Assembly (NCBI GenBank): GCA_964611295.1
Contig: CAZSWV010000002.1
Span: forward strand, 74,988-138,987
Reading direction: 5' to 3'
Source of the DNA: an uncultured Thermodesulfobacteriota bacterium
Lineage (GTDB): Bacteria; Desulfobacterota; B13-G15
Length of the DNA stretch: 64,000 bases
The position numbers and the translations under genes were made by a program. The notes below the pieces were generated by a model. The model was not told where the DNA came from, made no database searches, and was given only the letters and a program-made list of their open reading frames with translations. Positions 12,712-49,510 of this stretch are shown here, one piece after another. Numbering within the stretch: position 1 is the stretch's first letter; each line of letters opens with the position of its first letter.

Positions 12712-12742
12712 AAAAAAGGGCCCTTTTAAGGGCCCATTTTTT
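12712..12742 (-). terminator. Rho-independent terminator downstream of atpE
   Basis: AAAAAAGGGCCC-TTTTAA-GGGCCCATTTTTT: a palindromic GC stem flanked by A and T runs. Confidence 0.6.
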
Positions 12743-23203: not shown

Positions 23204-24403
23204 ATGAAAGACTTAAACGCCATAGAAGAAAGGAACAAACTGCTGAGGGAATCCGTCAGACAAATTGCTAGAACTAAAGTAGCAAAAAGAGCAGCAGAAA
23301 TCGATCGGGCTGGAGTTTTTCCATGGGATATAGCAGAACTTTTTGCACAACAGGGGTATTTAAGCATCCTCTTCCCCGAAGAATATGGAGGATTTGATGG
23401 TAGCATTACAGCTCTTTGCATAGTAGCTGAAGAAATAGCATACGCATGTGCCTCAAGTTCATTAATGATTGTTGCTCACTCCGTAGGCTTAATACCATTG
23501 ATGATATCGGGTACAAAAGAACAAAAAGAGTATTTTTACAGTCGTGTAGCTAAAGAAGGAGCTTTAGTAGCGTTTGCCTTAACAGAACCAGAAGCTGGCT
23601 CAGATGCCTCAGCTTTAAAAACCACTGCAATTCGCAAGGGAGATTATTACGTGGTAAACGGGAGAAAGACATTTGTAACTAATGGAGGAGTAGCTGATAT
23701 TTATACTGTTTTTGTAACAACAGATCCATCAAAGGGGAAGAAAGGGATTGCAGTTCTAATGATTGAAAAAGATACAAAAGGAATGTATATAGGTAAACCT
23801 GAAGACAAAATGGGAATGAGAGGCTCCGATACAACTGATCTTATTTTTGAAGATGCTATAGTACCTGCAGAAAACCTCATCGGAGGTGAGGGCAACGGTT
23901 GGGAAATTGCAATGATGACATTGAATTTATCGCGTCCCTCTGTTGGAGCATTAGCTATAGGAATAGCCCAAGGAGCTTTGGACTGTGCACTTGAGTATAC
24001 CACTCAACGGGTTCAATTTGGACAAAAGCTAGCAGATTTTCAAGGAGTGCAATTTATGTTAGCTGATATGGCGATGAAAATTGAAGCAGCGCGTGCTTTA
24101 GTATACAAAGCAGCTGCTTTATTAGATGAAAAAGTTTACGAAAGAGACAAAATGTCAGCCTTAGGTGTGGATACTTTGTCTGCAATGGCAAAATGTTTTG
24201 CTTCAGATGTGGCAATGCAAGTTACTACAGATGCCGTACAACTATTAGGTGGGTATGGATATTTAAAAGATTACCCAGTAGAAAGAATGATGCGTGATGC
24301 TAAGGTAACTCAAATTTTTGAAGGAACTAACCAAATTCAGAGAATAATAATAGCTCGCAATCTTTTAAAGCCATTTTGGAAAAAAGAACTGAGAAAGGAT
24401 TAA
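23204..24403 (+). CDS. Acyl-CoA dehydrogenase
   Basis: ACAD fold across the whole length, with the C-terminal catalytic-region motif IFEGTNQIQR. Confidence 0.88.
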   Translation: MKDLNAIEERNKLLRESVRQIARTKVAKRAAEIDRAGVFPWDIAELFAQQGYLSILFPEEYGGFDGSITALCIVAEEIAYACASSSLMIVAHSVGLIPLMISGTKEQKEYFYSRVAKEGALVAFALTEPEAGSDASALKTTAIRKGDYYVVNGRKTFVTNGGVADIYTVFVTTDPSKGKKGIAVLMIEKDTKGMYIGKPEDKMGMRGSDTTDLIFEDAIVPAENLIGGEGNGWEIAMMTLNLSRPSVGALAIGIAQGALDCALEYTTQRVQFGQKLADFQGVQFMLADMAMKIEAARALVYKAAALLDEKVYERDKMSALGVDTLSAMAKCFASDVAMQVTTDAVQLLGGYGYLKDYPVERMMRDAKVTQIFEGTNQIQRIIIARNLLKPFWKKELRKD

Positions 24404-26823
24404 ATAGTACAGTTTTTTTTATCTTAAAGGATTTTTATTTTAAGTCCCCTTTTTCCCCTCTCTGTGCTTCTTTGGTAACAGGGATGTTGCTAGCAAATTG
24501 CGAATGGTTGTTTTTTTGTGTCTCCGCATTTATTTCTCTTCTTGGACTTTTTTGCATCAGTAAAAAGGTTGGAGCTAAAGCATGTTTTCTTGCCTTGATT
24601 TTTGCAGCTTTAGGTTATTGGAACGCATCGAAAATATTGAATCCTAAACTAGGTAAGGATCATATTTCTCAGTTATCATTAGAAGAAATAACAAAAGTAG
24701 AAGGTTATACTTTTAAACCTTCTGATTTAAGTATGCAAAGAACAACGATATATTTAGAGGTAAAAAGAGCTTTTGTAAATAACAAATGGATAAAAGTAAA
24801 AGGAAGATTAAAGTTAAATTACAGAGGGAAATTACAGTTAAATCAAGGAGCATTTATAAGAGTAAAAGTAAAATTGAGAAAACCTACTGGGTATTTTAAT
24901 CCTGGTTCTTTTCAATATCATAAATATCTCCAAAGACAGGGGATATTAGTAATCGGCAGTGCTTTAAGTCCTCCAGAAATTCTGAATACTTCCAAAAGTA
25001 CCTTGACGTTAATAAGGGAACACTATTTATATGCTTTATCATTCGCTTCACCAAAAACGAGGGGAATCCTTAAGGCGCTTATATTAGGACAACGTGATGA
25101 AATCCTGCAAGATGTAAGAGAGTTGTTTCAAATAACAGGAGTGTCGCATATATTAGCTGTCTCAGGAATTCACGTTAGCGTTTTGTTTCTCTTTTCTACG
25201 TATTTTGTGAAAATTATATTAAAATGGCTCCATATAAACATAAGTAAAAACATCCTTACATTCTTATCTTTACCTTTAGTATGGGGATATATATACCTTG
25301 TAGGCGGTCCCCCTTCAGCCCTTAGAGCAGGCTTAATGTTTACAACAACAGTTTTCTTGGTCTCATTTTATCGTCCTTTCTCAGCGGTTAACAATTTATT
25401 TATTGCAGCATTTTTTATACTTTTAATAAATCCCTCTAGTTTATGGACTCCATCTTTTCAGCTATCTTTTGCTGCAACATCTGGTATTTTACTATTAGCT
25501 CCCAGAGTTTCTACTTTTATAGATAAGCTTTTTATCGATTATGGTACTTCTTACGAAAAAAAGAAAATTTCAGTCAGAAAAACAATTAAATGGTTTTTTT
25601 CTATTATTTACATTTCAGTTATAGCTCAGATTTTCACAGTGCCTATTTTAATTGCTCATTTTAACCATGTTTCTCTTATCGGTCCAATAGCAAATCTGGT
25701 TGTCGTCCCTATTATGAGCGTTTTAATTTTGCCAATGTCTTTTATAGCAGCTGTTTTTTCTTTATTTTCAATTTATTTCGCTAAAACTTTAATACAAATA
25801 TCTTCTTTAACACTAGAAATTGTTTTAAATATATTAAAAATATTTGCGGAAATTTCTTATTTAAATTTATGGGTTTTTAGTTTTAATAATATAGAATATT
25901 TATGTTTTTATTTTACTTTGATCCTTTTACTTATCTTTTTTAGATCTAAAAATCTCTTTTGGCCTTTTATTATTGTCATAAGTCTATTATGGGGACTTTA
26001 TGTCTTTTCACAATCAGAGAAAAGTAAGGAACTAGGTGACTTTAAGCTAACTTTTTTGGATGTAGGACATGGAGATTCCATCTTTGTACAGTTACCATTA
26101 GGGAGCACCATGTTGATCGACGGAGGGACTGCAGTAAATGATTTTGACACAGGAAGAAATATTGTAGCTCCATTCTTGTGGTCACAAAGGGTTTTAAAAG
26201 TTGATTATGTAGTTTTAAGCCATGCCGAGCCAGATCATTATGGAGGATTGCTTTTCATACTGAAAAACTTCAAACCAAAGGAATTTTGGTATGCGGGTGA
26301 GTCATTACCAGATGAATTGGTAAAAGTTTTAAATGACTTAAAAAAACAAGGGCTAGTGATAAGGAAATTAAAAAGAGGGGATACAATGCGAGTATCTGGT
26401 GTTGACATTTTTGTGCTTCACCCTCCAGAAAATTGGTCATCAGATCCCAATGATAGTTCTTTAGTTTTGAAAATAGAAAAAGCCAATAGATCCATACTCT
26501 TTACAGGGGATATCAGCAAAAAAGTGGAAATAGAGCTCTTAAAATCAATTAGCGAACTAAAAGCAGAAGTGATAAAGGTTCCCCATCACGGTTCTAAATA
26601 TTCCTCATCCTATTCTTTTTGCCAAGCAGTAAGTCCTAAAATTGCAATCTTTTCAGTAGGGAAGAATAACCCGTACGGTCATCCTTCTGAAAAAATCATA
26701 CAACGCTATAAAGGCATTGGAGCAATAATTTTACGTACAGATACTTGTGGAGCAATAACACTAACTGCAGATGATTACGGTTGGAGAATTTCTACTTATT
26801 TAAAATGTAATCTTTACCCTTAA
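24376..26823 (+). CDS. comEC: DNA internalisation competence protein ComEC/Rec2 with a C-terminal metallo-beta-lactamase domain
   Basis: Polytopic competence domain, then HAEPDHYGG. The true start is probably the internal M at about 24484, because the called start overlaps the acd stop. Confidence 0.8.
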   Translation: MEKRTEKGLNSTVFFILKDFYFKSPFSPLCASLVTGMLLANCEWLFFCVSAFISLLGLFCISKKVGAKACFLALIFAALGYWNASKILNPKLGKDHISQLSLEEITKVEGYTFKPSDLSMQRTTIYLEVKRAFVNNKWIKVKGRLKLNYRGKLQLNQGAFIRVKVKLRKPTGYFNPGSFQYHKYLQRQGILVIGSALSPPEILNTSKSTLTLIREHYLYALSFASPKTRGILKALILGQRDEILQDVRELFQITGVSHILAVSGIHVSVLFLFSTYFVKIILKWLHINISKNILTFLSLPLVWGYIYLVGGPPSALRAGLMFTTTVFLVSFYRPFSAVNNLFIAAFFILLINPSSLWTPSFQLSFAATSGILLLAPRVSTFIDKLFIDYGTSYEKKKISVRKTIKWFFSIIYISVIAQIFTVPILIAHFNHVSLIGPIANLVVVPIMSVLILPMSFIAAVFSLFSIYFAKTLIQISSLTLEIVLNILKIFAEISYLNLWVFSFNNIEYLCFYFTLILLLIFFRSKNLFWPFIIVISLLWGLYVFSQSEKSKELGDFKLTFLDVGHGDSIFVQLPLGSTMLIDGGTAVNDFDTGRNIVAPFLWSQRVLKVDYVVLSHAEPDHYGGLLFILKNFKPKEFWYAGESLPDELVKVLNDLKKQGLVIRKLKRGDTMRVSGVDIFVLHPPENWSSDPNDSSLVLKIEKANRSILFTGDISKKVEIELLKSISELKAEVIKVPHHGSKYSSSYSFCQAVSPKIAIFSVGKNNPYGHPSEKIIQRYKGIGAIILRTDTCGAITLTADDYGWRISTYLKCNLYP

Positions 26824-27247
26824 ATCTTATTACAAAGTTTTCACCGATTTGAAAAGCATATTGTCCTAGTTGGTAAAAGGCAAGACGTGAAATCTTTGCG
26901 GGAAATTTCCTATCTTTAACTTTACAATAAGGTATCCCCTTGGAACTTAAATAAAATGTGTCTAAGTCAAGTATTTCTTCTGTTCCATCATTAAGGTGTA
27001 TTTTAAAAACGTCATCTTTTTTTTCGATCCATTTAACGATAAAAACGGTGTCTTCTACTTCAACAGGTTCTTTATACCCCTCCCACTCAATCCAATAATT
27101 ACCTTTATCATCTGTTCTTAAGTTGTTTAAAAATTCTTTTATGATATCCTTTCTAATTATTTCCTGATCGCAATAATACCAGCGGCCTTCGCTATCTACT
27201 CGAATTAAAGCCTTATCCTTCATCACCGAGCCTTTTTGATTTTTCAT
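26792..27247 (-). CDS. Hypothetical protein, about 143-151 aa
   Basis: ORF tightly coupled to proC. I recognise no family. Confidence 0.45.
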   Translation of the reverse strand: MKNQKGSVMKDKALIRVDSEGRWYYCDQEIIRKDIIKEFLNNLRTDDKGNYWIEWEGYKEPVEVEDTVFIVKWIEKKDDVFKIHLNDGTEEILDLDTFYLSSKGIPYCKVKDRKFPAKISRLAFYQLGQYAFQIGENFVIRFKGKDYILNK

Positions 27248-28007
27248 ATGCTGCGTAGATGGCTTCCATTATGGCTGCCCTTACTCCCCAGCGTTCCAAA
27301 ACAAACATCCCTTCCGCTGTAGTCCCTGCCGGGGAAGTAACCTCTTCCCTAAGAATAGCAGGATGTTTACCAAGTAACACCATTTTAGCAGTCCCCATTA
27401 CCGTTTGAGCCGACAATATCAGGGCGTCCTCTCTTTTTAATCCCAACCTAACCCCTGCTTCGACCATAGCTTCTATAAAGAGAGACACATATGCAGGACC
27501 ACTACCACTTAAGCCAGTTATCGCATCCATTTTGTTTTCTTCTACGATAATCACCTTCCCCATGGTACTAAGCAAAGAAACTACTTGATTGATATCTTCT
27601 TCTGATGCCTCCGTTCCTTTGCATACTGCAATCGCTCCTTCATTTACCAAAAGCGGGAGATTTGGCATTACACGTATAACCTTTGCATTTTTCTTCAGTA
27701 CTGAAATAATCTTCGATATCTTCAAACCTGCTATAACTGATACAATAATTTTTTTCTCTGTAATAAAGGGGCTTATTTCTTCAAGAACATCAATAGCTTC
27801 TTGAGGTTTAACAGCAATCCACACTATATCAGCTTTTTTCGCAATATGGGAATTGTTTTCATAAACCGATATACCGAGTTCTTCAGCTAAACGACACCGC
27901 TCTTTAGACTTATCTGATGCTATTATTTCCTCTTTTTTTAAGCTTCTTAAGAAACTATTAATAAGTGCTAACCCTATTTTCCCTATCCCAATAACACCTA
28001 CCACCAT
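27213..28007 (-). CDS. proC: Pyrroline-5-carboxylate reductase
   Basis: N-terminal motif VGVIGIGKIG and ProC-like length and C-terminus. Confidence 0.85.
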   Translation of the reverse strand: MVVGVIGIGKIGLALINSFLRSLKKEEIIASDKSKERCRLAEELGISVYENNSHIAKKADIVWIAVKPQEAIDVLEEISPFITEKKIIVSVIAGLKISKIISVLKKNAKVIRVMPNLPLLVNEGAIAVCKGTEASEEDINQVVSLLSTMGKVIIVEENKMDAITGLSGSGPAYVSLFIEAMVEAGVRLGLKREDALILSAQTVMGTAKMVLLGKHPAILREEVTSPAGTTAEGMFVLERWGVRAAIMEAIYAAYEKSKRLGDEG

Positions 28008-28050
28008 GGAGTTTTTATAATACTTAGTTATTGATAAATTGTCAATGCAA

Positions 28051-29790
28051 TTAGTATTTATATCCTCTTGAAGTGACCATTTTCGATTTTTTTATAAAAG
28101 TTTGGGAATTGCCAACTATTATAGTAGTATCCATCTCTATAGGGTAATTTTCTAACTCTACTAAACTTGTTATCCAAAATTTACATCCCTCTCGGTATGC
28201 TTTTTTTACTATTGCAACAGGTGTATTGGGTTTTTTATATTGAAGCAAAATTTCCTTTATTTCTTTTATCCTATCACGATTTTTGCTTCGAGGGTTTAAC
28301 AAAACCAATACAAAATCTGCAGCAGCTGCTTTCCTAAGCCTATCTTCTATAAGCTCCCATGGGACTAAACGATCGGATAAGCTAATGACCGAAAAATCGC
28401 CAATCAAAGGGGCTCCTACTAGAGAAGCTGCTGCATTAATGCTAGAAATACCAGGTATTATTTCCACATCTATGGTATGATCTTCAAGTAACTCAAATAC
28501 AATTCCAGCCATCCCGTAAACACCAGGATCACCTGCACTTACAATGCTTACTATTTTACCGCTTGCAGCCTCTTCTAGCGCTCTTTTAGCTCTTTCTACT
28601 TCATGGGTCATGCCGTACACAAGAAGTTTTTTGTCTTTAATGATAGGTTCTATCAATTTAACATAAGTACTATATCCTATTACCACATCAGACTCCCTTA
28701 AAGCCTTTACAGCCTGTGGAGTAATAAGCTCTAAATCACCTGGTCCAATTCCCACCACATAAAGCTTACCTTTTGGCCTAAACGCAACTTCAGCTAAAGC
28801 AAAAGTGACGTGATCAAAAACCCTCTTAGGAGCTATTAATACTCCTCCACTTGCTAAAAGAGCTGCTTGCTCTGAGAGTGAATCTATTCCTATGGCCTTC
28901 TTCACCTTATCAGAAGAGCTAACAGATTTTACCTTTCTTAATTCCTCTTCTGAATAACCAAGGATTTCCACTTTCAAAGCTTCCTTCAAAGAAACAATAA
29001 CTGGATGTTGTACTTTGCGTCTAAGTGTCGCTATAGCCTTGATAGCTTCAGGTAAAACTCCTAAAGAATCCAGCCATTTCTGCAATGTGACTTTAACATA
29101 TTCTGGATTTACTAAATCGTGAAAACCTATCCCAACAAAAAGATTTTGGGGGACAAACTGTACTTTACTTTCTAACGAAACAAATTTACGATTAGAAATC
29201 AATATGTCGGCTTTTTCTGGGTCTTCCACTTCTTCTATACCTTTTGGTAAATTAATGTGAACTTTTTTATCGACAAACGCTAAAAGTTTTCCATTATTCA
29301 ATAACTTTTCTTGTATCGATGGTAACTTTGATTTATTAATTATACGGAACCCCAATTTTTTAGCCCAAAGATCTAAAGCTTCAACTTCCCATAGGTCAGA
29401 GGAAGTTGATATAACAACTTGTGCTCCCAATAAGGTAGATATCTCATTTGCCAAGTGATTTGCTCCTGCTAAATGTCCTCCGCAGAGTGGTATAACAAAA
29501 TTACCTTTTTCATCGATTACTAACACTGCAGGGTCTTTCTCTTTGTCATGAAGAAGGCGTGCTATGATACGAACTACAATCCCTGTAGCCATTACAAAGA
29601 TCAAGAAGTTATTTTGTTTCCATAAAGAGTCTACTAGTTTCGGTTCTAATCTCCTAACATTGGCATTAGGATAAAAAGGTCTTAATTTTTCTATCAATTT
29701 ATAACCGCGGTCACTTATGTAAATAAACACTATATTTCCCTTATCGTGCTTCATGTTTTTTATTCCCATAAAGTTTGGACCTTTTCCCAA
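28051..29790 (-). CDS. cbiGH: CbiG-CbiH fusion (cobalt-precorrin-5A hydrolase / precorrin-3B C17-methyltransferase)
   Basis: CbiG-like N-terminal portion of about 330 aa, then a tetrapyrrole methylase domain starting KLYVVGIGPGD. The start codon is uncertain (M1, M8 or M13). Confidence 0.8.
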   Translation of the reverse strand: MGKGPNFMGIKNMKHDKGNIVFIYISDRGYKLIEKLRPFYPNANVRRLEPKLVDSLWKQNNFLIFVMATGIVVRIIARLLHDKEKDPAVLVIDEKGNFVIPLCGGHLAGANHLANEISTLLGAQVVISTSSDLWEVEALDLWAKKLGFRIINKSKLPSIQEKLLNNGKLLAFVDKKVHINLPKGIEEVEDPEKADILISNRKFVSLESKVQFVPQNLFVGIGFHDLVNPEYVKVTLQKWLDSLGVLPEAIKAIATLRRKVQHPVIVSLKEALKVEILGYSEEELRKVKSVSSSDKVKKAIGIDSLSEQAALLASGGVLIAPKRVFDHVTFALAEVAFRPKGKLYVVGIGPGDLELITPQAVKALRESDVVIGYSTYVKLIEPIIKDKKLLVYGMTHEVERAKRALEEAASGKIVSIVSAGDPGVYGMAGIVFELLEDHTIDVEIIPGISSINAAASLVGAPLIGDFSVISLSDRLVPWELIEDRLRKAAAADFVLVLLNPRSKNRDRIKEIKEILLQYKKPNTPVAIVKKAYREGCKFWITSLVELENYPIEMDTTIIVGNSQTFIKKSKMVTSRGYKY

Positions 29791-30499
29791 AGGGTTCTTT
29801 TATTGCCTTTAAAGCTTCCCCGACGTATATAAGTGCTGTCCTTTTGATGGAATTTCTTTCAATAATCAGATCAAGCTCAGAAAGTTTTCCTAAGAAGACT
29901 TGTCCATCTGGCCAAGTTATTTTGTGCAGAACCGCTATCGGTGTGTCCCCCGGTAGTGTTTCTAACAAAGTTTCTTTGAGTGGTTTTACCAAAGAAGTGC
30001 TCAAGAAAAAGACCATGGTAGCCCTAAGTGAAGCTATTCGCTTTATTTCCTCTTTTGTAAGCCCTCCTGTATTTCCTTTAAACCTCAATAATATGACAGC
30101 TTCTGAAATCTCGGGTACCGTGAGTTCTACGGCCATAATCGCTGCTCCAGCCATGGCTGATGACACTCCAGGGATAACCTCATAAGGTATTCCCCTTGAT
30201 TTCAGCTCTTCCATCTGTTCTTGGATAGCGCTGTAAATACTCGGGTCACCGCTTACAAGCCTAACGACATCTTCACCCTTTTTAACGTGTTGTTCCATTA
30301 AATCAACTAACTCCTCCAAAGCCATCTTTGAAGAGTCAAAGAGCGTAGCTCTTATGCCCTTTATTATCTCAGGATTCAACAGACTACCAGGGTAGATGAC
30401 ACACGAAGCAGTTTCAAGAAGCCTCTTGGCTTTGACCGTTAGAAGCTCCGGATCTCCTGGACCCGCCCCTACGAAATATACTTTTCCTAACTTCTGCAC
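29741..30499 (-). CDS. cbiF: Cobalt-precorrin-4 C11-methyltransferase
   Basis: VYFVGAGPGDPELLTVKA and a CbiF-like length. Confidence 0.85.
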   Translation of the reverse strand: MQKLGKVYFVGAGPGDPELLTVKAKRLLETASCVIYPGSLLNPEIIKGIRATLFDSSKMALEELVDLMEQHVKKGEDVVRLVSGDPSIYSAIQEQMEELKSRGIPYEVIPGVSSAMAGAAIMAVELTVPEISEAVILLRFKGNTGGLTKEEIKRIASLRATMVFFLSTSLVKPLKETLLETLPGDTPIAVLHKITWPDGQVFLGKLSELDLIIERNSIKRTALIYVGEALKAIKEPFGKRSKLYGNKKHEAR

Positions 30500-31158
30500 T
30501 TTTTAACTACCACAAGAGAAAGGTAATCCTCGTCGTTATCTTCTAATGCCTCTAATCCCTCCCATATCTTTTGTTCGGGTAAGGTAGCCCTCTTAATGTA
30601 AAAAACCCTATAACGGTCAACGTCGATAAACTCCTTCAAATCCTTTATCTTACCTTTAACTTTTAAGAACACAAGGGTATCAAAATCGTTTATGTAAGTG
30701 CTTAAATTTTCACAGTATAAAACAGGGATAAGGGCAAGTTTTTCTTCACCTAGAACCAAAGGAAGTGGAATAGCACAAGCAGCAGCTGTAAAAGAACTAA
30801 CACCTGGTATTATTTCTACCGAAACTTTTTCCCTCAAATGATCGTAAATCCAAAAAAAAGTACAGTATAAGGAAGGATCGCCCAAGGTAACGTAAGTCCC
30901 TGTTTTAAAACGTTCTAACTCTTTAAGGATGACTTCCGAAGCCTTTGTAAGATGGACTTTTGGGTTTTGGGCCTTCATTGGAAATTCCAACAATACAACT
31001 TTTTGGCCTTTTAAAAATCCTCTTATGATCTCTAAAGCTCTACTATGCCCCTTTGTGGACGGACAAAAGACCACAGGGGCTTCTTCAAGGACCTTTCTGC
31101 CCTTAAGGGTTATAAGCTCAGGATCTCCCGGGCCTACCCCTACTACGTAAAGTTTCAC
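30487..31158 (-). CDS. cbiL: Cobalt-precorrin-2 C20-methyltransferase
   Basis: LYVVGVGPGDPELITLKG. The start forms an ATGA overlap with the upstream gene. Confidence 0.8.
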   Translation of the reverse strand: MKLYVVGVGPGDPELITLKGRKVLEEAPVVFCPSTKGHSRALEIIRGFLKGQKVVLLEFPMKAQNPKVHLTKASEVILKELERFKTGTYVTLGDPSLYCTFFWIYDHLREKVSVEIIPGVSSFTAAACAIPLPLVLGEEKLALIPVLYCENLSTYINDFDTLVFLKVKGKIKDLKEFIDVDRYRVFYIKRATLPEQKIWEGLEALEDNDEDYLSLVVVKKCRS

Positions 31159-32396
31159 CGTTTCCCCCTTATTACAAATACTGGGTTTAAAGCTTTAAAG
31201 CCCTTTTTGGTCCCAATGGGTTTGAGCCTAACTACGTTGACCTGCACCACATCGAGCTCGAAACCACATCCTTCAAAGCACTTTAAGGCTTCTGAAAAGG
31301 TCTCCACTGTCACAGCTGTAGTGACCACAACCTTAAGGCGTTCGATTTTGGTCAGTGTCCTTAATATTTCACCCAATTTTCCACCTGTCCCCCCTATGAA
31401 AACCCTATGTGGGGCTTCAAGCCCCATAAGGCATTCAGGAGCTTCACCTTTTATTACGATTAAATTGTCTAGACCAAACTTTTCCTTATTTTCCAACAAG
31501 GACTCAATGTCTCCCTTCTCAACAGCATAAACCTTAAGGGAGCGACTCAGTCTTGCCAACTCTACACTTATAGCTCCTGATCCAGCTCCTATGTCCCATA
31601 CTATACCCCTCCAAGGGGGTCTTAACTTATGGATGACAATAGCTCGTAACTCATCTTTCGTTATCATGCTCATTTTGTGATATATTTCGCTTTCCTCTAG
31701 ACCTATGATCGGTCCTCCAGGCTCTTCATGCGTTACGATTACAAAATGGGGATCTTCAATCTCCCACTTAAGGACCTCGTCTGCCGTTCCTTTCATCACC
31801 TTGAAATCGCTGTCCCCAAGCTTTTGGAATACAAAAAAAATGAGCCTTCCAGAAATAGTGTTTTTTAAAAAGTTTGCTAAGAACTTAGCATTTTTATTTG
31901 AGTCGGTAAGTACCGCCACTTTACCTTCTTCTTCCAAAACTCTTACTACTGCTTCTAGGGCAATTCCTTTGCCATGTAGACTTATAGTAGTTATACCGTG
32001 CCAGGGCTTTTTTATTATGCTAAGACCTATATTTAAACAAGAAACATCAGGCAAGATTTCGATTTTTTCCTCTCCTAACTCTTTAATAGCTTTTTCCGCT
32101 ATGCCAAAATACAAAGGATCCCCCGAAGCCAAAATTACAACATTTCCTTTGTGTAAAAAGGACGAAACTTTCGTGAAAAGCGTAGCTATATCTTGAACTT
32201 CGTACAGTTTGTTTTTTACTTTGTCATATTCCTTATACGATTTGAATATTTCATGTGAACGCGGAAGAGCAAAAATCACATCTGCCTCCTCAACGATTTT
32301 AAGAGCATCTCCGTCCAGAGGTTTGAAACCAATCCCTATGACAAAAACTTTATGTTTCTCTGTAACTAAGGAGATATATCTCCATGATGTATCCAT
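31155..32396 (-). CDS. cbiET: CbiE-CbiT fusion (cobalt-precorrin-6Y C5,C15-methyltransferase, decarboxylating; CobL-like)
   Basis: N-terminal tetrapyrrole methylase, then a C-terminal SAM methyltransferase with IVWDIGAGSGAISVE. Confidence 0.8.
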   Translation of the reverse strand: MDTSWRYISLVTEKHKVFVIGIGFKPLDGDALKIVEEADVIFALPRSHEIFKSYKEYDKVKNKLYEVQDIATLFTKVSSFLHKGNVVILASGDPLYFGIAEKAIKELGEEKIEILPDVSCLNIGLSIIKKPWHGITTISLHGKGIALEAVVRVLEEEGKVAVLTDSNKNAKFLANFLKNTISGRLIFFVFQKLGDSDFKVMKGTADEVLKWEIEDPHFVIVTHEEPGGPIIGLEESEIYHKMSMITKDELRAIVIHKLRPPWRGIVWDIGAGSGAISVELARLSRSLKVYAVEKGDIESLLENKEKFGLDNLIVIKGEAPECLMGLEAPHRVFIGGTGGKLGEILRTLTKIERLKVVVTTAVTVETFSEALKCFEGCGFELDVVQVNVVRLKPIGTKKGFKALNPVFVIRGKR

Positions 32397-33087
32397 GTTT
32401 TTCCCTCAAGGAACGTCTCAGTTTTATCAGTTGGTCTTTTACTTCGACCAACCTTCCTGAAAAAACCGTCTCTTTCTCGGTGCCAAGATAAGCCCCCCAA
32501 TAAATCCAAATATTTGGATCATTAATAAAGCGGAAACTTTCGTAGTTATCAAGAAATACAACGGTATTATCGCGGATTTCCTTTTTTTTCCTCATCACAC
32601 GCGGAGTGGTCAAAACGACTGATCCGGCTATATCGTTTAAGGATATTTTATGTTTAGCAGAAAGAAGCTGGATAGACGAAATTCCAGGAATTACTTCAAA
32701 ATGAATTGGTATAATTGTGGAAAGATAACGTAGTATCTCTATATAACCATCGTAAAGAGAAGGATCTCCTAAGACCAAAATACCAGCTTCTTCAATTTCT
32801 TGAATGGCACTTAATAACAATTTTGCTTTGTGTTTTCTCCATTCTTTAACCGAATCTACATAAGGCAACTCTGTTGGTCTCTGCCCGAAATCTAATCGTA
32901 TCAGTTCATAATCTTTTTGAGGACGTAAATGATTTAGGATTCTTTCTCGTAATAAAGTAAGGTGTTCCTTTTCACCCTTTTTATCAGGGATAATGAAATA
33001 CTGTAATTTTTTAATTAAGTCACAAGCTTCAAGGGTCAAATATTTAGGGTCACCTGGTCCTATGCCTATTATATAAACCTTCTTCAT
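32350..33087 (-). CDS. cobF: CobF-like precorrin-6A synthase (deacetylating) type tetrapyrrole methylase
   Basis: IIGIGPGDPKYLT at the N-terminus. The C-terminal motifs IYWGAYLGT...SGRLVEVKD...IMEIYLL are characteristic of CobF as far as I recall. Confidence 0.6.
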   Translation of the reverse strand: MKKVYIIGIGPGDPKYLTLEACDLIKKLQYFIIPDKKGEKEHLTLLRERILNHLRPQKDYELIRLDFGQRPTELPYVDSVKEWRKHKAKLLLSAIQEIEEAGILVLGDPSLYDGYIEILRYLSTIIPIHFEVIPGISSIQLLSAKHKISLNDIAGSVVLTTPRVMRKKKEIRDNTVVFLDNYESFRFINDPNIWIYWGAYLGTEKETVFSGRLVEVKDQLIKLRRSLREKHGYIMEIYLLSYRET

Positions 33088-33938
33088 TTTTCATTTATAG
33101 GAAATACGCCCTTCAAATGTTCTAACCAAATCCTTATTATCCTATTGCTCTCTGCAAGTCCTCTCAGCAGAGGTACTACTTTAAAACCTTCCTTTTCGAG
33201 TATGGACTTCCAACTGCTTGGATCTTCACCAGCCATGTCGTTTAAGACGTGATCTCCCGCAACAGCCATGAATGGTATGAGGTATACTTTCTTTACTTTA
33301 TTAATACGCAACTTGGGTATTATTTCCTCAAATTTAGGCCATCCTTCTACGGTAGCTAAAAATACGTTTGGGTCCTTTTGGTTAAGAACATAGGCTATTG
33401 CTACATACAAGTTGCCTGCGGGATGAGAGGTGCCATGTCCCATAAAAATGACACCATCTTTTGATGTCCTTTCCTTTGGGAGTTCCTCCAGGAGTATCTG
33501 AGCCACGTGTTCCAAATCTTCGTAAGAAGAGAGCAAAGGTGGAGAAACCACTATGTATTTCAACTTGTTTGACATCTTGGAAAACAATTCTGCGCTCCTC
33601 TTTAACTCATGGTATTCCTCACCGGGTATTACATGAAGGGATAATATTCCTATTTCTTCAACCCCTTCCTCTAGCATACGACAAAGGGCCATTTCAGGAG
33701 AGTCAACGTTAACCCCCTGCTCCCTTAGCTTTTCCCTGACCATCCTCGACGTATAGGCCCAACGGACGCTGGCCTCGGGGAATTCACCCTTAACCACTCG
33801 ATCCACCGCGTCGTAAACTTTTCTCGCTTCAGGAACACTGGTCCCAAAGGCAACGATCAATATGCCTTTTTTTGAGGTACTATGGCATATACCTATAACA
33901 CAAAGAACAAAAAAACTCACTATAACCAACACCCTCAT
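33084..33938 (-). CDS. cbiK: Sirohydrochlorin cobaltochelatase CbiK with an N-terminal signal peptide (periplasmic CbiK(P)-type)
   Basis: Hydrophobic leader MRVLVIVSFFVLCVIGICHS, then a CbiK fold with the metal-binding His residues. Confidence 0.75.
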   Translation of the reverse strand: MRVLVIVSFFVLCVIGICHSTSKKGILIVAFGTSVPEARKVYDAVDRVVKGEFPEASVRWAYTSRMVREKLREQGVNVDSPEMALCRMLEEGVEEIGILSLHVIPGEEYHELKRSAELFSKMSNKLKYIVVSPPLLSSYEDLEHVAQILLEELPKERTSKDGVIFMGHGTSHPAGNLYVAIAYVLNQKDPNVFLATVEGWPKFEEIIPKLRINKVKKVYLIPFMAVAGDHVLNDMAGEDPSSWKSILEKEGFKVVPLLRGLAESNRIIRIWLEHLKGVFPINEK

Positions 33939-33941
33939 ACT

Positions 33942-34547
33942 CTACCCCTCCTTTTGATTTTTAACAATTTTCAATAAAGCATTTACCACAGCAGCTGTTG
34001 CTGCTGATCCTCCTTTACGACTCAAGTTTGTTATAAATGGAAAATCTTGCTTACTTAAAATAATTTTGGCCTCCAACGCTTTAATGAAACCCACAGGCAT
34101 GCCTATTATTATTTTATCTTTTATCTTATTTACATTAAACAACTCAATTGCTGATAACAATGCAGTAGGCGAATTACCGATAGCGACAATTCCGATTTCC
34201 TGTCCTTTTTCAAAAAAAGCTACTCGTATAGCTTCTTCACACATAGTTCCAGAAGCAGTACTTACTTTATCAAGGTAGCATATAACCTCTATATCTGAGG
34301 ATAAATTTTTAGAAATACCTGCTTCAAGCATTTTTACGTCTACCAGAATTGCTTTTTTCTTTAATAGAGCATCTATGGCTACTGCAATTGCTTTGGGATG
34401 AAAGACCATAGTGTATCGGAATTCTGGATCGGCTGTGGCATGGATGACCCTTTTTATAATCTCTTTCTGTTCAAAAGGTATTCCTTCGAAATCAATTTCT
34501 CTTTCTATGAGTTCCAAGCTCTCTTTTTCTATTTGTTCACCACCCAT
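33942..34547 (-). CDS. cbiC: Cobalt-precorrin-8 methylmutase
   Basis: CbiC/CobH family features and length (201 aa). Confidence 0.8.
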   Translation of the reverse strand: MGGEQIEKESLELIEREIDFEGIPFEQKEIIKRVIHATADPEFRYTMVFHPKAIAVAIDALLKKKAILVDVKMLEAGISKNLSSDIEVICYLDKVSTASGTMCEEAIRVAFFEKGQEIGIVAIGNSPTALLSAIELFNVNKIKDKIIIGMPVGFIKALEAKIILSKQDFPFITNLSRKGGSAATAAVVNALLKIVKNQKEG

Positions 34548-34558
34548 GTGAAAAACTC

Positions 34559-35344
34559 CTAAAGGACATAGGGTACTATTACGGAAAACCCGTTGGTTTT
34601 TATGGAGTACACCTTTATCCCATAGACCTCTTCGATAAGATCTTCAGTTATGACTTCGGAAGGGGCTCCTTGTACCACGATTTCTCCTTTGTTTAATACC
34701 AAGACCCAATCGCCAAAAAACAGAGCCAAGTTCGGATCGTGTAAGCTAATTAAAACTCCTTTGCCCTCGTTATGTGAAAACTCCCTTATTTTAGACAAAA
34801 CCGTCCATTGGTTTTTAAAGTCCAAATGTGAAGTCGGCTCATCGAGTAGCACATAAGAAGCCCCTTGGGCAATGGCCCTTGCAAGGAGGGTCAATTGTCT
34901 TTCGCCTCCGCTTACCTTAGTATAGGTTTTTTCCCCCAAGTGCCCTATTCCAAGCATTTCCAAAGCCCTCTTGGCGATAAGAAGGTCTTTGTCTCCGGGG
35001 GTGGAGAAAACACCAAGGTGAGATACCCTCCCCATAAGTACGATTTCAAGGACTTTATAAGGAAAAGAAGGCTCGTGATCTTGTGGTACGTAGGAAATCC
35101 TTTTCGCCCTCTCCTTATAGGTTAAGGAGTTCACACTTTTACCATCTATCTTTATCGTCCCTTTTTGAGGTTTCCATATGCCTACAAGACATCTAAACAA
35201 GGTGCTTTTCCCAGAACCATTTGGGCCAAGTAAGACCGTGATTTCTCCTTTACGAACTCGGAAAGATACATCCCTCAGGATTTCCTGAGGTTGCCCCTTG
35301 TGTCTGAAAGTTAAGCCTTCAACTTCTAACATCAGCTTTCCCAA
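34559..35344 (-). CDS. ABC transporter ATP-binding protein, FepC/BtuD/HmuV type
   Basis: Walker A GPNGSGKST, signature LSGGERQ, Walker B LLDEPTSHLD. Confidence 0.88.
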   Translation of the reverse strand: MGKLMLEVEGLTFRHKGQPQEILRDVSFRVRKGEITVLLGPNGSGKSTLFRCLVGIWKPQKGTIKIDGKSVNSLTYKERAKRISYVPQDHEPSFPYKVLEIVLMGRVSHLGVFSTPGDKDLLIAKRALEMLGIGHLGEKTYTKVSGGERQLTLLARAIAQGASYVLLDEPTSHLDFKNQWTVLSKIREFSHNEGKGVLISLHDPNLALFFGDWVLVLNKGEIVVQGAPSEVITEDLIEEVYGIKVYSIKTNGFSVIVPYVL

Positions 35345-36333
35345 GTTTCTTTTCCCTTTTTCCTCATCAGATAAACGAAAAACGGAGCACCTGTAAGGGC
35401 CGTTATTATACCTACAGGAACGTCAAAACCCACAAAAGTCCTCGAAAGAGTATCTGCTCCTATCATAAAGGCGGCACCTCCAAATAACGAAAGAGGCAAA
35501 AGAACACTATGCTCTGGTCCAACCATCATCCTTACAATATGTGGCACCATTAACCCAACCCATCCAATAATTCCACATGTTGAAGTAGCAACAGCTACAG
35601 AAAAAGTCGAGAATAAGATAAATATCATCCGATCTCTCTTCACATTTACACCTAACGCATAAGCTTCTTCTTCTGAAAGACTCATTACGTTTAACCTCCA
35701 TCTCATAAGCACTATTGGCAATATTCCTACTATGGTTCCTATCAAAGCTATTTTAAAGTTACGCCAATCAGAAAGAGAAAAACTGCCCATTGTCCAAAAA
35801 ATTATACCTTGTAATTTATGGGGATCCACTAATATTTTTACAATAGAAACCAGAGCTGTGAAAAAAGCTGAAACTATTACACCTGAAAGCACCAATGGAA
35901 GTCTAGAAATTTCTTGTTGACTTTTTGCTACCATATAAGTAAGTGATACTGCTAAAAGTCCAAATATAAAAGCCATAGTTTGAACTGACCAAGATGGTAA
36001 AAACCCTATAGTTATAGCACATCCAAAAGCTGCTCCTGCTGAAATCCCTAAGATGTAAGGGTCGACCAAAGGATTCCGTAGCAGTCCTTGTAATACTGCC
36101 CCGGATCCTGCCAAAGAAGCCCCTACTGTTGCTGCCATTAATATTCGCGGTAGGCGTATATCTAAGATAATTGCCTTTTCTGGAATATTACTAATACCGT
36201 TATAGTTGGTGATTCCCTGGAATAATATCTTAATTACTGTAATTGGAGGGATATCATAAGTTCCTATAAAAAGGGAAAACAACCCTATTGCGAAGGGAGA
36301 AAGTATTATAAAGGACGTTTTAATCCTTTTCAT
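35332..36333 (-). CDS. FecCD-family ABC permease (BtuC/HmuU-like)
   Basis: Polytopic membrane protein with FecCD-type features. Confidence 0.85.
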   Translation of the reverse strand: MKRIKTSFIILSPFAIGLFSLFIGTYDIPPITVIKILFQGITNYNGISNIPEKAIILDIRLPRILMAATVGASLAGSGAVLQGLLRNPLVDPYILGISAGAAFGCAITIGFLPSWSVQTMAFIFGLLAVSLTYMVAKSQQEISRLPLVLSGVIVSAFFTALVSIVKILVDPHKLQGIIFWTMGSFSLSDWRNFKIALIGTIVGILPIVLMRWRLNVMSLSEEEAYALGVNVKRDRMIFILFSTFSVAVATSTCGIIGWVGLMVPHIVRMMVGPEHSVLLPLSLFGGAAFMIGADTLSRTFVGFDVPVGIITALTGAPFFVYLMRKKGKETWES

Positions 36334-37303
36334 ATGTTTTCACCTCTTGCCAAGATATGCTAAAAACCTTCTTGAAGAAAGCGTTCATTAGTTCTTGGAT
36401 TGTTGTACTTTCTATCCTTTCGAGGTGTAAATATTGATCCATCCACAAAGCCAATCCAATAATGGATGGTGACCATGTTTGTAGGTGGGGCATTCTGTAA
36501 ACCCTTTGGTTTTGTACTGCGCTGATCTTTTGCCATGCAGGATGTTTTAATATCCACTCTGGACCGTAACTTGTACTTCTCCAAAGGAATATAGTATCAG
36601 GATTCCATCCGATTATGCGTTCAAGGGAAACGTTTGCGTATTTTACTCCTAAGCCGCACGCTACATTTTCAGCGTTAAGGCACCTGAGCACGTCGTTAAT
36701 TATGCCTTGATCAGCGATTACCCGCGTTGGAGGATCGCTGAGGATGAGCACCCTTTTGTGGTTACCTTTTTTGTTTTCTAAATAGGACAGAAACCTCCTC
36801 ATCTCCATAATGATCTCCTTGGCTCTTTCTTCTTTTGCAAACAGCCTTCCGTGGACTTCTATAAGTTCAAAGAGGTCCTTTAATCCGTCAGGCCAGAAAG
36901 CCATGACTTTTATCCCTTTGTTTTCAAGGAATTGAAGAAGTTCGGGGTTGTTTGCCCACATGATGACTACGTCTGGGTTAAGTTGGGTTAGTTTTTCTAG
37001 ATCTATTTGCCATGGTGTTCCTATGATTGGCCTTCTCAAAGAAGGGTTTTTACGCAATAGAGCTTTAAAAACGGGAGAAAACTCGTAGGCATTTTGAGAT
37101 ATGCCTACCACGCGGTCCATTGCTCCAAGGGAACAAACGACCTCGTAGGTCATAGTAACCACGGCCCTTTTAACGGGGACTTCTAAGGTTATCCTTTTCC
37201 CTCTTGAGTCCCAAAAGGTCTCTTCTTTTCCCCAAAGCCGTCCATGGAAACTTGAGGCAATCAAGTACAATGCTGACAATAAGATGAAAGATTTGAGCCT
37301 CAT
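36320..37303 (-). CDS. Periplasmic substrate-binding protein (BtuF/HmuT-like)
   Basis: Signal peptide MRLKSFILLSALYLIASS. The start is re-called at ATG 37303, because the track's GTG start at 37336 lies inside the riboswitch terminator hairpin. Confidence 0.75.
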   Translation of the reverse strand: MRLKSFILLSALYLIASSFHGRLWGKEETFWDSRGKRITLEVPVKRAVVTMTYEVVCSLGAMDRVVGISQNAYEFSPVFKALLRKNPSLRRPIIGTPWQIDLEKLTQLNPDVVIMWANNPELLQFLENKGIKVMAFWPDGLKDLFELIEVHGRLFAKEERAKEIIMEMRRFLSYLENKKGNHKRVLILSDPPTRVIADQGIINDVLRCLNAENVACGLGVKYANVSLERIIGWNPDTIFLWRSTSYGPEWILKHPAWQKISAVQNQRVYRMPHLQTWSPSIIGLALWMDQYLHLERIESTTIQELMNAFFKKVFSISWQEVKTYEKD

Positions 37304-37304
37304 T

Positions 37305-37560
37305 AATAAAAAAACCCCACGTTTGTGGGGCTGCACCCGTTTTTCTCTTCGCCCCTTCCCCTATCCCTCGAGGGGATTAGGGTTATATGGTGGGCAGGTC
37401 TTCCGGCTCCCGGATCTTCCTACTCCCCGCACCTTCCCAGGGCCAGAGGCCCCAGTGGCCTACTGCGGGTTTCGTCCCCGGTCACGGCGGCGGGACCGCG
37501 GGGGATTTTCACCCCACTTCCCTTTTAAGCCCACAATGGGCACCCACCTATATTTTATTT
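37305..37560 (-). promoter_or_regulatory. Cobalamin (B12) riboswitch: aptamer at about 37405-37555, plus an expression-platform hairpin and U-tract at 37305-37330
   Basis: The minus-strand RNA reads GGUGCC...AAAAGGGAAGUGGGGUGAAAAUCCCCCGCGGUCCCGCC...AGGCCACUGG, which contains the B12 box GCCACUG. It is followed by CCCCACAAACGUGGGG and a U7 run just before the btuF ATG. The region is a GC-rich island in AT-rich DNA. Confidence 0.85.
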
Positions 37561-37618
37561 TCCCTCTCAATGAGTTTATGGTCAACAGTGTAGTCTTCTT
37601 GATAGAATCTTTTAGCTC

Positions 37619-38194
37619 ATGGGACTTTTGGTTGAACTTGACCTCAGAGGGAAAAGAGTCCTCTTAATAGGAGGAGGTTGTATAGCGACGAGGAGATTTT
37701 TAAAACTATACCAAGCCCGTCCTTCGCTATTAAGGGTAGTAGCAAAAAGGATACAGGAGGAAATCAAAAAAGTGGCTTTTGTCACCCCATGGATTGAACT
37801 TTTTGAAAGGGATTTTCAAGAAGAAGACCTAGAGGGCTTCCATATGGTATTGGCTGCAACAGATGACGCGGATCTCAATCGTAGGATAGCCTTTTTGGCA
37901 AGGGGAAAAGGTATGTGGGTCAACGTGGCAAATGATAGAGGACTTTCTGATTTTTTCTTCCTTGCTACTGTGGAAAGACCACCTTTGTCTATAGGGGTTT
38001 CTTCTTCAGGAACGCTTCCCGCCTTTTCAAGTGCCCTTAAGGAAGCTTTAGAATCAACTCTCCCATGGGATGAGCTTGTCCGTGAACTCCATCTACTGGT
38101 TATGCAAAGAGGCAAAATTCCTTCTTCGGAAATGCGCAAAAGATGTTTAAATAGGATACTTTCAGTGTGGCCTAAATTTACAAAGGACAAATAA
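37619..38194 (+). CDS. sirC: Precorrin-2 dehydrogenase / sirohydrochlorin ferrochelatase (SirC / CysG N-domain-like)
   Basis: LRGKRVLLIGGG Rossmann N-terminus, length 191 aa. Confidence 0.75.
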   Translation: MGLLVELDLRGKRVLLIGGGCIATRRFLKLYQARPSLLRVVAKRIQEEIKKVAFVTPWIELFERDFQEEDLEGFHMVLAATDDADLNRRIAFLARGKGMWVNVANDRGLSDFFFLATVERPPLSIGVSSSGTLPAFSSALKEALESTLPWDELVRELHLLVMQRGKIPSSEMRKRCLNRILSVWPKFTKDK

Positions 38195-47713: not shown

Positions 47714-47717
<4 letters not shown>

Positions 47718-49060
47718 TCAGCCGTTTCCCCTTTCCACAGGTCTTTAAAGGTAGTAAGTTCAGGTATATAAGCCAATTCTACCGTCCCAGTGGGACCATT
47801 ACGTTGTTTACCTATGATTACCTCTGCTATGCCCTTTTTGGATGTGTTGGGATTATAAACCTCATCACGGTATATAAAGAGGATCAAATCAGCATCTTGT
47901 TCTATGGCTCCTGACTCCCTGAGATCTGCAAGCTGAGGCCTACGGCCAGGACGGTCTTCAGCTCGTCGAGACAGTTGACTTATAGCAATGACTGGAATCT
48001 GCAATTCTTTGGCTAGAGCTTTCAAAGAACGCGATATTTCCGAAATTTCTTTTTCACGTGTTTCAGCATTTGACCGCCCCCTCATAAGTTGAAGATAGTC
48101 TATTATTATCAGCCCAAGTGACATTTCACCCTTTAATCTTCTTGCTTTAGCTCTTAATTCAAGTACTGACAATGCTGGTGTATCATCAATGACAATAGGT
48201 GCATCACTTAAGATACTCGCTGCTAGCGTTAGTTTTTGTAAATCAGCCTCTGACAAAAATCCGCTCCTTACTTTTGAAGCATTAACCTTAGCTTCAGCAC
48301 ATAACATACGCATAGCTACCTGTTCTTTTGACATCTCCATGGAAAAAATAGCCGTAGGTACCCTCGCATGGACCGCGGCATAATGGGCTATATTCAGACA
48401 AAAGGCAGTTTTACCCATGGATGGCCTTCCTGCTACAATGATCAAATCAGATGGTTGAAATCCAGCCGTCAATCTATCCAAGTCTTTAAATCCCGAAGGT
48501 ACACCCGTTACTAGCTCCTTACGTTCATATAAACGTTCTATTACCCTGAAAGTCTCCTTTAAAATCTCTCTTATAGGATAGAAGGAAGGTCTAACGCGGT
48601 ACTCGGAGATACTGAAAATAAGTTGTTCAGCACGATCCAAAAGCTCTTCAATGTCTTCTTCTTCTTTATAACAATCTGTGATGATCTCAGTAGCTGCAGA
48701 TATCAATTGTCTAAGGAGGGCTTTTTCTTTTACTATTCGCGCGTAATGCAAGACATTAGCCGCAGTTGGTACACATTCAGCTAATTGTGCCAAATATGTG
48801 GCTCCTCCTACTTTATCTAAGACTTTCAGCCGTTTGAGTTCATCTGTAAGCGTGATCAGATCTAAAGGCTCACCTCGCTCGTAAAGGGATATCATTGCTT
48901 GGTAAATTTTCTGGTGAGATTCTTTATAGAAATCTTCAGGACGCAAAAGTTCGATAACTTTATGGATGGCGTCGTTATCTATTATTATGCCACCTAATAC
49001 CGACTGTTCAGATTCTATACTCTGAGGAGGGAGTTTATGAAAGGGAAACTCCCTCGTCAT
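47714..49060 (-). CDS. dnaB: Replicative DNA helicase
   Basis: DnaB N-terminal domain, Walker A GRPSMGKT, RecA-like C-terminus. No intein. Confidence 0.92.
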
Positions 49061-49063
49061 TTT

Positions 49064-49510
49064 TCAATCCTCTTTTTCTACCCATACTTCAAGAGGAACC
49101 TTGACCTCTGAATGAAGTCTTACGTAAACCGTATGCGACCCAAGGTGCCTAATGGGTTCTTTCAACTCTATCCTTTTCCTATCTACCTCAATTCCCATTT
49201 CCCGAAGGGCCACTTCTATGTCATGTGGAGTAACTGCACCGAAAAGTTTGCCTTCGACCCCTGCAGACCTTTTTATCACACACTTTATTCCTGCTAACTT
49301 TTCCGCCAATCCTTGCGCACGCTCCTTTTCCCTTTGGAGTTTCCTCTCGATAAGCTTCTGACGCTCTTTAATGCGCGTTATATTTTTTGAGGTCGCAGGT
49401 TCGGCTAATCCTTTGGGAATCAGATAATTCCTTGCGTAGCCCTCTTTTACTCGCACTACTTGTCCTGCCTTACCTAAGGAAGGTACATCCTCTAGTAAAA
49501 TCACCTCCAT
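49064..49510 (-). CDS. rplI: 50S ribosomal protein L9
   Basis: MEVILLEDVPSLGKAGQVVRVKEGYARNYLIP. Confidence 0.92.
   Translation of the reverse strand: MEVILLEDVPSLGKAGQVVRVKEGYARNYLIPKGLAEPATSKNITRIKERQKLIERKLQREKERAQGLAEKLAGIKCVIKRSAGVEGKLFGAVTPHDIEVALREMGIEVDRKRIELKEPIRHLGSHTVYVRLHSEVKVPLEVWVEKED

Follow-up and report, generated by a model that had tools for sequence, protein, structure and literature searches.

Cobalamin riboswitches whose expression platform acts on transcription and translation together form an established category. Barrick and Breaker (2007, Genome Biol 8:R239, PMC2258182) defined a "dual transcription and translation attenuation" platform by a hairpin-to-start distance of no more than 10 nucleotides (nt), and the same paper notes that dual mechanisms had been predicted earlier for adenosylcobalamin (AdoCbl) riboswitches. 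Here we analyse a minus-strand leader in a 64,000-nt stretch of DNA from an uncultured Thermodesulfobacteriota bacterium (contig CAZSWV010000002.1, positions 74,988 to 138,987; hereafter the window, whose own numbering is used throughout), in which a cobalamin (B12) aptamer and a terminator-like hairpin precede an operon of ATP-binding cassette (ABC) importer genes and corrin (cbi) genes. We think it probable, with some reserve, that this leader is a class-I AdoCbl OFF riboswitch whose platform joins a terminator with masking of the ribosome-binding site (RBS). Specifically, the hairpin lies 9 nt from the start codon (from the end of its 8-base-pair (bp) stem at 37313 to A37303; 11 nt from the G-C core), and about 7–9 nt from it in two orthologous leaders, L008 and L009. 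At 9 nt, the window leader falls within the 10-nt limit set for the dual category in PMC2258182. The likeness to the described dual platforms lies in a terminator close to the start and in the OFF logic, with no difference in kind; the window leader departs from them in that its Shine-Dalgarno (SD) element is a weak G-run rather than GGAGG, and the window case is known from sequence alone. A combined terminator/RBS platform, the novelty of which was implied in a first-pass annotation of this DNA, is thus a category already named in 2007, and the arrangement is real but ordinary.

The Bacillus subtilis yvrC leader (Chan and Mondragon 2020, PMC7367189) likewise consists of an aptamer, a P13 hairpin whose loop L13 kisses L5, a separate P14 terminator and a poly-U tract. 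It also precedes the gene for the binding protein of an ABC transporter, and AdoCbl represses the yvrC operon by Rho-independent termination. All cobalamin riboswitch classes share the L5–L13 kissing loop, which suffices to stabilise the platform hairpins of yvrC (PMC7367189). On the other hand, yvrC has an atypical, hybrid aptamer in which the P6 extension is short and a P8–P9 hairpin is added, whereas the window aptamer is a full class-I type with a long P6 extension, and the window terminator, unlike that of yvrC, abuts the start codon. With the class-I structures (Thermoanaerobacter tengcongensis, 4GMA) and with Escherichia coli btuB, the window leader shares the B12 box, the P1–P6 core with its P2 module and P6 extension, and a C-rich L5 whose G-rich counterpart lies in a hairpin loop, predicted in the case of the window, just 3' of P1. 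However, E. coli btuB is mainly translational (PMC2258182) whereas the window leader has a canonical terminator, and the register-shifting P13 described below is a prediction for the window leader and no described feature of the 4GMA-type or btuB RNAs.

Aptamer, hairpin and start codon of the leader

The elements of the leader from which the argument starts are as follows.

37376–37561 (−): cobalamin riboswitch aptamer, Rfam family RF00174, model positions 1–189, with class-I features (P1, P2 module, P3–P6 junction, long P6 extension)
37491–37495 (−): L5, the C-rich loop UCCCG, placed by the covariance-model alignment; proposed kissing-loop partner of L13, a role taken from PMC7367189 and PMC2258182
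37453–37459 (−): B12 box GCCACUG, read from the letters and aligned to the model's conserved CCACUG
37308–37332 (−): intrinsic-terminator hairpin (P14-like), AGCCCCAC / AAAC / GUGGGGUU, with a U7 tract at 37314–37308, located by terminator scans
37314–37318 (−): GGGGU, the only SD-like element 5' of ATG 37303, in the 3' arm of the terminator; duplex with CACCUCCUUUC

The RF00174 covariance model covers 37376–37561 end to end (model 1–189; E = 1.5e-29), and its 120.1 bits far exceed the gathering score of 31.5. The alignment takes in the four-way junction as well as the P2 module and the long P6 (P7–P11) extension, the latter two with high posterior probability. The first-pass annotation had called a canonical cobalamin aptamer with the B12 box GCCACUG, and the Infernal scan bears this out, with the box at 37459–37453. 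Under the class definition of PMC7367189, these sequence features make the aptamer class-I, that is AdoCbl-type, and its class-I peripheral elements suggest selectivity for AdoCbl.

The hairpin begins about 121 nt past the B12 box, farther than the roughly 100 nt first estimated. Its core, CCCCAC (37330–37325) / AAAC / GUGGGG (37320–37315), extends to the 8-bp stem AGCCCCAC/GUGGGGUU at 37332–37313, with five G-C pairs and a 4-nt loop; the predicted free energy rises from −12.8 kcal/mol at 37 °C to −6.1 kcal/mol at 70 °C. The stem is followed by U7 (37314–37308), AUUA and ATG 37303–37301, leaving 11 nt of U and A only between GUGGGG and AUG, so the originally annotated order of hairpin, U tract and AUG is found in place. 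A permissive terminator scan of the region returned five sites against 2.5 ± 1.6 by chance, an excess of about twofold that by itself proves little. A strict rule (stem of at least 6 bp, at least four G-C pairs, at least six U in eight) applied to both strands of the whole window also gave five sites, where dinucleotide-matched simulations averaged 2.9, and the estimated chance of a strict site in the gap of about 75 nt between aptamer and start, on the correct strand, is about 0.002. It is therefore unlikely that the terminator at 37308–37332 is a chance occurrence.

In line with this, GUGGGG and the six U after it are kept in both L008 and L009, and CCCCAC is kept in L008 as well, whereas the loop (AAAC in the window, ACAAAA in the orthologue; the L009 contig includes only its last bases) and the spacer differ. 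The stem is conserved without compensatory changes, which amounts to conservation only. The hairpin with its U7 thus carries a conserved intrinsic-terminator signature, and termination itself is predicted from it. Elsewhere in the window, a perfect palindromic hairpin (GGGCCCUU AA AAGGGCCC, 12718–12735) with T-runs on both strands looks like a bidirectional intrinsic terminator; it is the other best-formed strict stem and U-tract site, and it matches the leader terminator in size and style.

The same hairpin might act on translation only, as an SD sequestor whose U-run is nothing but an A/U-rich spacer. GGGGU does lie in its 3' arm, and 9 nt separate the end of the hairpin from the AUG. In Gram-negative bacteria, cobalamin riboswitches commonly control translation (PMC2258182), and one related leader, L078 from Caldatribacterium, seems to employ a C-rich anti-SD in place of a terminator. 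However, all three orthologues retain six to seven U directly 3' of the GC-rich stem, in a spacer that is otherwise variable, the site at 12718–12735, read on both strands, is of like size and style, and a sequestor at the first gene should not be able to regulate the cbi genes downstream unless a further mechanism, for example Rho polarity, came in. We consider a switch without termination highly improbable.

The position of the hairpin relative to the first gene depends on the start codon. The longest open reading frame (ORF) begins at GTG 37336–37334, which precedes the 8-bp stem by 2 nt and the GC core by 4 nt. The hairpin reaches this GTG only through a weak, G·U-rich lower helix in one minimum-free-energy (MFE) prediction, and the GTG at 37320, inside the 3' arm, is out of frame; the first-pass placement of the tool-called GTG start inside the hairpin is accordingly mistaken, since that codon sits just 5' of the stem. 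If the longest ORF were correct, the gene would encode a 338-amino-acid (aa) protein and the hairpin would lie within coding sequence. GTG 37336 is in frame, a purine-rich stretch, GGGGAAGGGGCGAAGAG, lies 5' of it as a second SD-like stretch in the leader (duplex −9.3 kcal/mol, but 14 nt off), and several of the public gene calls, which give 338, 327, 319 and 277 aa for this gene, adopt it.

Against the GTG start, L008 reads GUGGGG UUUUUU GUU AUG and L009 reads likewise and has, immediately before GUGGGG, an in-frame TAA within the hairpin loop, which makes an upstream GTG start impossible in L009. Additionally, between GTG and ATG the window and L008 differ by +2 nt in the hairpin loop and −2 nt in the spacer, so the would-be peptide is scrambled (KRGVFLL versus TKVGFFV) while the RNA stems are kept. 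From the ATG, in contrast, all three orthologues encode a short basic stretch followed by a standard hydrophobic signal peptide. We give the 338-aa alternative next to no credence. As read from the aligned orthologues, ATG 37303 is the true start of the first gene, as the first-pass annotation had it.

Upstream of the aptamer lies a candidate promoter.

37557–37585 (−): candidate sigma-70-type promoter, TTGACC (37585–37580), 17-nt spacer, GAAAAT (37562–37557), nine of 12 consensus matches

A predicted transcription start site near 37550 would keep the P1 core intact; the evidence for the promoter assignment is weak. On the plus strand, a promoter-like site (TGGTCA, 18 nt, TG-TAGAAT) ends at 37608 within the 37579–37619 region, and its −35 hexamer covers almost the same bases as TTGACC on the opposite strand. 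The divergent SirC-like gene that starts at ATG 37619 (+) has no SD, and this site would give it a nearly leaderless mRNA. The plus-strand ORFs 37284–37667, 37325–37528 and 37387–37593, which run over the riboswitch, gave no family match and were treated as shadow ORFs.

Predicted folds of the platform and their proposed effect on gene expression

Between the aptamer and the terminator, folding predicts two further elements.

37353–37382 (−): P13/L13 hairpin, from MFE and stepwise folds, in two forms, A and B
37327–37355 (−): predicted antiterminator, in which GGGGC (37355–37351) pairs with GCCCC (37331–37327)

Predicted form A of P13 pairs CCCU (37382–37379) with AGGG (37356–37353) and UCCCCU (37376–37371) with AGGGGA (37362–37357); its 8-nt loop, CGAGGGAU (37370–37363), exposes GGGA (37367–37364), which is complementary to UCCC of L5 (37495–37492). 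In predicted form B, AUCCC (37377–37373) pairs with GGGAU (37367–37363) and CCCU with GGGG (37361–37358), and GGGA is buried. In stepwise folding up to 37333, form A forms directly 3' of P1. Once GCCCC (37331–37327) has emerged, the MFE structure flips to form B with the antiterminator, and when GUGGGG follows, form A returns together with the terminator. As long as the 3' arm of the terminator is not yet transcribed, the antiterminator pairing is present in all 42 suboptimal structures within 3 kcal/mol. For the completed RNA, the terminator state is predicted at −29.0 kcal/mol against −26.2 for the antiterminator state at 37 °C, and at −13.6 against −9.9 at 70 °C.

Both P13 forms and the same folding succession are predicted for L008. 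The leader from 37421 to 37304 is 94% identical between the window and L008 (111 of 118 positions), compared with 76% for the coding sequence, whose 118-nt windows range from 67% to 82%. All stems are invariant between the two, the differences lying in predicted loops and linkers, with the exception of A37377, the terminal pair of form B.

From these folds and the literature we infer the following course of events. After the aptamer (37561–37376), P13 would offer the GGGA of its loop to the C-rich L5. With B12 bound, the L5–L13 kissing loop would lock P13 in form A, which uses both downstream G-runs; the antiterminator could then not form, the free GCCCCAC would pair with GUGGGG, and RNA polymerase would terminate at U7. 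Without B12, P13 would slip to the AUCCC/GGGAU register and release GGGGC (37355–37351) for the antiterminator with GCCCC (37331–37327), so that transcription would run on into the importer and cbi genes. If polymerase reads through although the hairpin has formed, GGGGU would be masked in the resulting transcript, and the first gene would be poorly translated as well.

The first-pass annotation had described the GUGGGG arm as the only SD-like element, 11 nt before the AUG. This is true for ATG 37303, since the purines ahead of it are confined to GUGGGG and the remaining spacer is U and A, although the best duplex, formed by GGGGU, is weak. Specifically, the duplex of GGGGU with the anti-SD sequence CACCUCCUUUC reaches −6.0 kcal/mol at a spacing of 9–10 nt (the window itself is without a 16S rRNA gene), and the orthologous duplexes reach −8.7 (L008) and −7.6 kcal/mol (L009) at 7 nt. 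Most genes of the window have a GGAGG-type SD 5–9 nt before the start with an anti-SD duplex of −10 to −15 kcal/mol.

A number of findings weigh against this model. The organism encodes a reverse gyrase, and the predicted stability of the hairpin falls to about −6 kcal/mol at 70 °C. There is no covariation: the searched databases hold three orthologous leaders, two of them truncated, with all stems identical, and support for the P13 registers and the antiterminator therefore comes from nearest-neighbour predictions. The gap of 3 kcal/mol between terminator and antiterminator is within the error of such predictions; the folds do not stand out against shuffled sequences (z-scores of −1.3 to −1.5, given no weight here); and the promoter consensus scan gave three such sites in the region where 1.7 are expected by chance. 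On the side of translation, GGGGU is weak beside the SDs of typical window genes, and even without ligand the predicted equilibrium ensemble has it 98–99.6% paired, so that any B12-dependent access to it would have to be kinetic. The translational component may, on these models, be unresponsive to B12 altogether.

These last points favour an alternative in which the switch acts on transcription only. The hairpin would then be a terminator, the overlap with GGGGU would stem from a very short leader and have no regulatory role, and initiation at AUG 37303 would proceed independently of B12, through the unstructured U/A-rich tract or through co-transcriptional ribosome loading. Besides the weak pairing and its occlusion without ligand, this alternative agrees with the window genes that lack any SD (those starting at 28007 and 37619, for example) and with the fact that termination alone could control the whole gene string. 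The conservation of GGGGU is fully imposed by the stem and is therefore silent on an SD function. However, the hairpin, at −29 to −10 relative to the AUG, lies within the 30S footprint region and should hinder 30S binding whatever the strength of the SD, if it persists on the full-length mRNA. Moreover, G-run SDs at about 10 nt exist elsewhere in the window (47717, for example), and the hairpin-to-start distance is within the published dual limit (PMC2258182). We regard the transcription-only alternative as possible but rather unlikely.

The dual platform remains the reading we prefer. Of the first-pass proposal that termination and RBS sequestration are combined, the conserved hairpin with its U tract and the position of GGGGU in the 3' arm stand, while an effect of the ligand on translation is only plausible; in particular, GGGGU may plausibly serve as the SD, with its masking adding B12-dependent control of translation. 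In a tightly packed gene string such as the one described below, only a transcriptional device could control all genes, so we see termination as the main device, to which RBS masking may plausibly add a secondary effect.

Operon content and possible substrates of the importer

The genes downstream of the leader all lie on the minus strand.

36320–37303 (−): first operon gene, a 327-aa Peripla_BP_2 binding protein (PF01497, E = 1.4e-26) with the N-terminal signal peptide MRLKSFILLSALYLIASSFHG and ATG 37303–37301
26792–36333 (−): remaining co-directional gene string, with FecCD permease, ABC ATPase, CbiC, CbiK, TP_methylase, CbiE/T, CbiL, CbiF and CbiG/H, then a ProC-like gene and a gene with a sub-threshold DUF1285 match

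From the leader down to 28051, over about 9 kb, the genes overlap or lie no more than 11 nt apart, and we propose that about 10–12 tightly packed genes, those of the importer and cbi, are under the control of the terminator. Past a gap of 43 nt, the gene at 27213–28007 (−) passes the cut-off for ProC (pyrroline-5-carboxylate reductase), and that at 26792–27247 (−) scores 26.7 bits for DUF1285 against a cut-off of 29.3. Neither a CbiJ-like precorrin-6 reductase nor CbiD turned up among the ORFs scanned in the cbi gene string.

The product of the first gene scores 93.8 bits for PF01497, and the neighbouring permease and ATPase score 310 bits for PF01032 and 113 bits for PF00005, respectively. 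Judged by its domain, its signal peptide and its neighbours, it is the Peripla_BP_2 (class III) binding protein of a FecCD-type ABC importer. The name btuF, under which it was first annotated, is not supported: the NCBIfam BtuF model (NF002894/PRK03379) gives 31.7 bits against a cut-off of 234, and its closest solved homologues are the Helicobacter pylori NiuB/CeuE structures 4INO and 4LS3 (E about 6e-28), with E. coli BtuF at E = 7e-5. For the permease and the ATPase, the best matches, though below cut-off, are Halobacterium-type corrinoid BtuC and BtuD models.

Two described importers resemble the present one in being ABC importers whose binding protein was first taken for BtuF. NiuB of H. 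pylori binds Ni(II)-(His)2, and NiuBDE imports cobalt too (PMC5140060). CbtJKL of Sinorhizobium meliloti was taken at first for a B12 transporter, CbtJ resembling BtuF; it imports Co(II) and stands behind an AdoCbl riboswitch (PMC7689651), as the window importer stands behind its own. By homology, the binding protein could belong to a CbtJKL/NiuBDE-like cobalt importer, and the candidate substrates are a corrinoid and chelated cobalt or nickel.

Two further readings are conceivable. In one, the platform would be a kinetic switch, gated by the kissing loop and working by the register shift: a slide of P13 over one G-run would set free or take up the antiterminator strand, the SD would be masked in both thermodynamic end states, and the first gene would be translated only if ribosomes load co-transcriptionally on the antiterminated RNA. 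In the other, the importer at the head of the anaerobic corrin-ring operon would be, instead of BtuFCD, a rare NiuBDE/CbtJKL-like importer of chelated cobalt. Both readings appear doubtful to us.

Related loci and the bacterial host

The family of the binding protein is rare: a search of 5.8 billion clusters gave five proteins at E ≤ 1e-20, and only three species-level lineages carry this binding protein. In the protein database, two lineages have 74–75% identity to the binding protein, after which identity drops to 38%, and a scan of genome contigs with the binding protein for orthologous leaders found nothing. The contigs of both orthologue lineages (L008 and L009) end inside or just past the riboswitch. 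Six Logan contigs (L001, L002, L003, L006, L007 and L008) all begin at window position 37421, inside the aptamer, with AGGAAGATCCGGG; these breaks span several runs, and two species share 33 identical bases there. The common break likely comes from de Bruijn graph branching at a shared k-mer and not from biology.

A scan based on the permease gave 80 loci, 79 of which were scanned for RF00174; L010, found through its binding protein (37% identity), was scanned besides, gave no RF00174 match and continues into a CobN/Mg-chelatase-like gene. An RF00174 match lies within the flank in four of the 79 permease loci, three from Caldatribacterium and one from Fervidobacterium, and in none of the 19 closest (54–65% identity) within the stored flank. 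In three of these 19 (L015, L016 and L027), the first gene, for a TonB-dependent receptor, runs off the 2.5-kb flank, and a riboswitch farther upstream is possible. In these three, whose permeases are 59–65% identical to that of the window, the operon order is TonB-dependent receptor, binding protein, permease, ATPase; the window lineage has the riboswitch in place of the receptor gene at the corresponding position. The Fervidobacterium leader (L080) has a terminator-like hairpin and then a separate GAGGAGG, and in the Caldatribacterium leader L078 a separate AAGGGGGU faces a C-rich stretch; both thus have a separate SD and are too divergent to align with the window leader. Types of expression platform vary among relatives, as is usual. 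Two unrelated permease loci lie downstream of other riboswitches, a Moco/tungsten riboswitch (RF01055, 65.7 bits, L057 37–159 (+)) and a c-di-GMP-II-GCG riboswitch (RF03170, 59.5 bits, L065 491–576 (+)).

The window has about 39% G+C, and the riboswitch and a tRNA-Ala(CGC) about 60%. It encodes a reverse gyrase (1340 bits), a sigma-54-dependent activator, ComEC, DnaB, MnmA, HtrA and the bacterial ribosomal protein L9. By family matches, the bacterial and thermophile marker genes are these.

7868–10981 (−): marker gene
24376–26823 (+): marker gene
47714–49060 (−): marker gene
49064–49510 (−): marker gene
57796–61200 (+): marker gene

The reverse gyrase together with the bacterial markers indicates a thermophilic bacterium. 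At NCBI, the proteins identical to those of the window (MEM0487795, MEM0487796, MEM0487798) belong to a metagenome-assembled genome (MAG) labelled "Candidatus Bathyarchaeia archaeon"; an archaeal origin is ruled out by the sigma-54 activator, ComEC, DnaB, MnmA, HtrA and L9, and the label most likely reflects a contig mis-binned into an archaeal MAG. Among GTDB species representatives, the nearest permease homologues (54–65% identity) belong to Caldimicrobium, Nitrospirota and Syntrophales-type MAGs.

Taken together, the locus adds one more example from a thermophile to a riboswitch type catalogued in 2007, and it opens no new question. Its practical bearing is on annotation: the start of the first gene is fixed at ATG 37303 amid four discordant public calls, the taxonomic label of the public MAG is flagged as probably wrong for this bacterial contig, and the automatic name "btuF" calls for caution.

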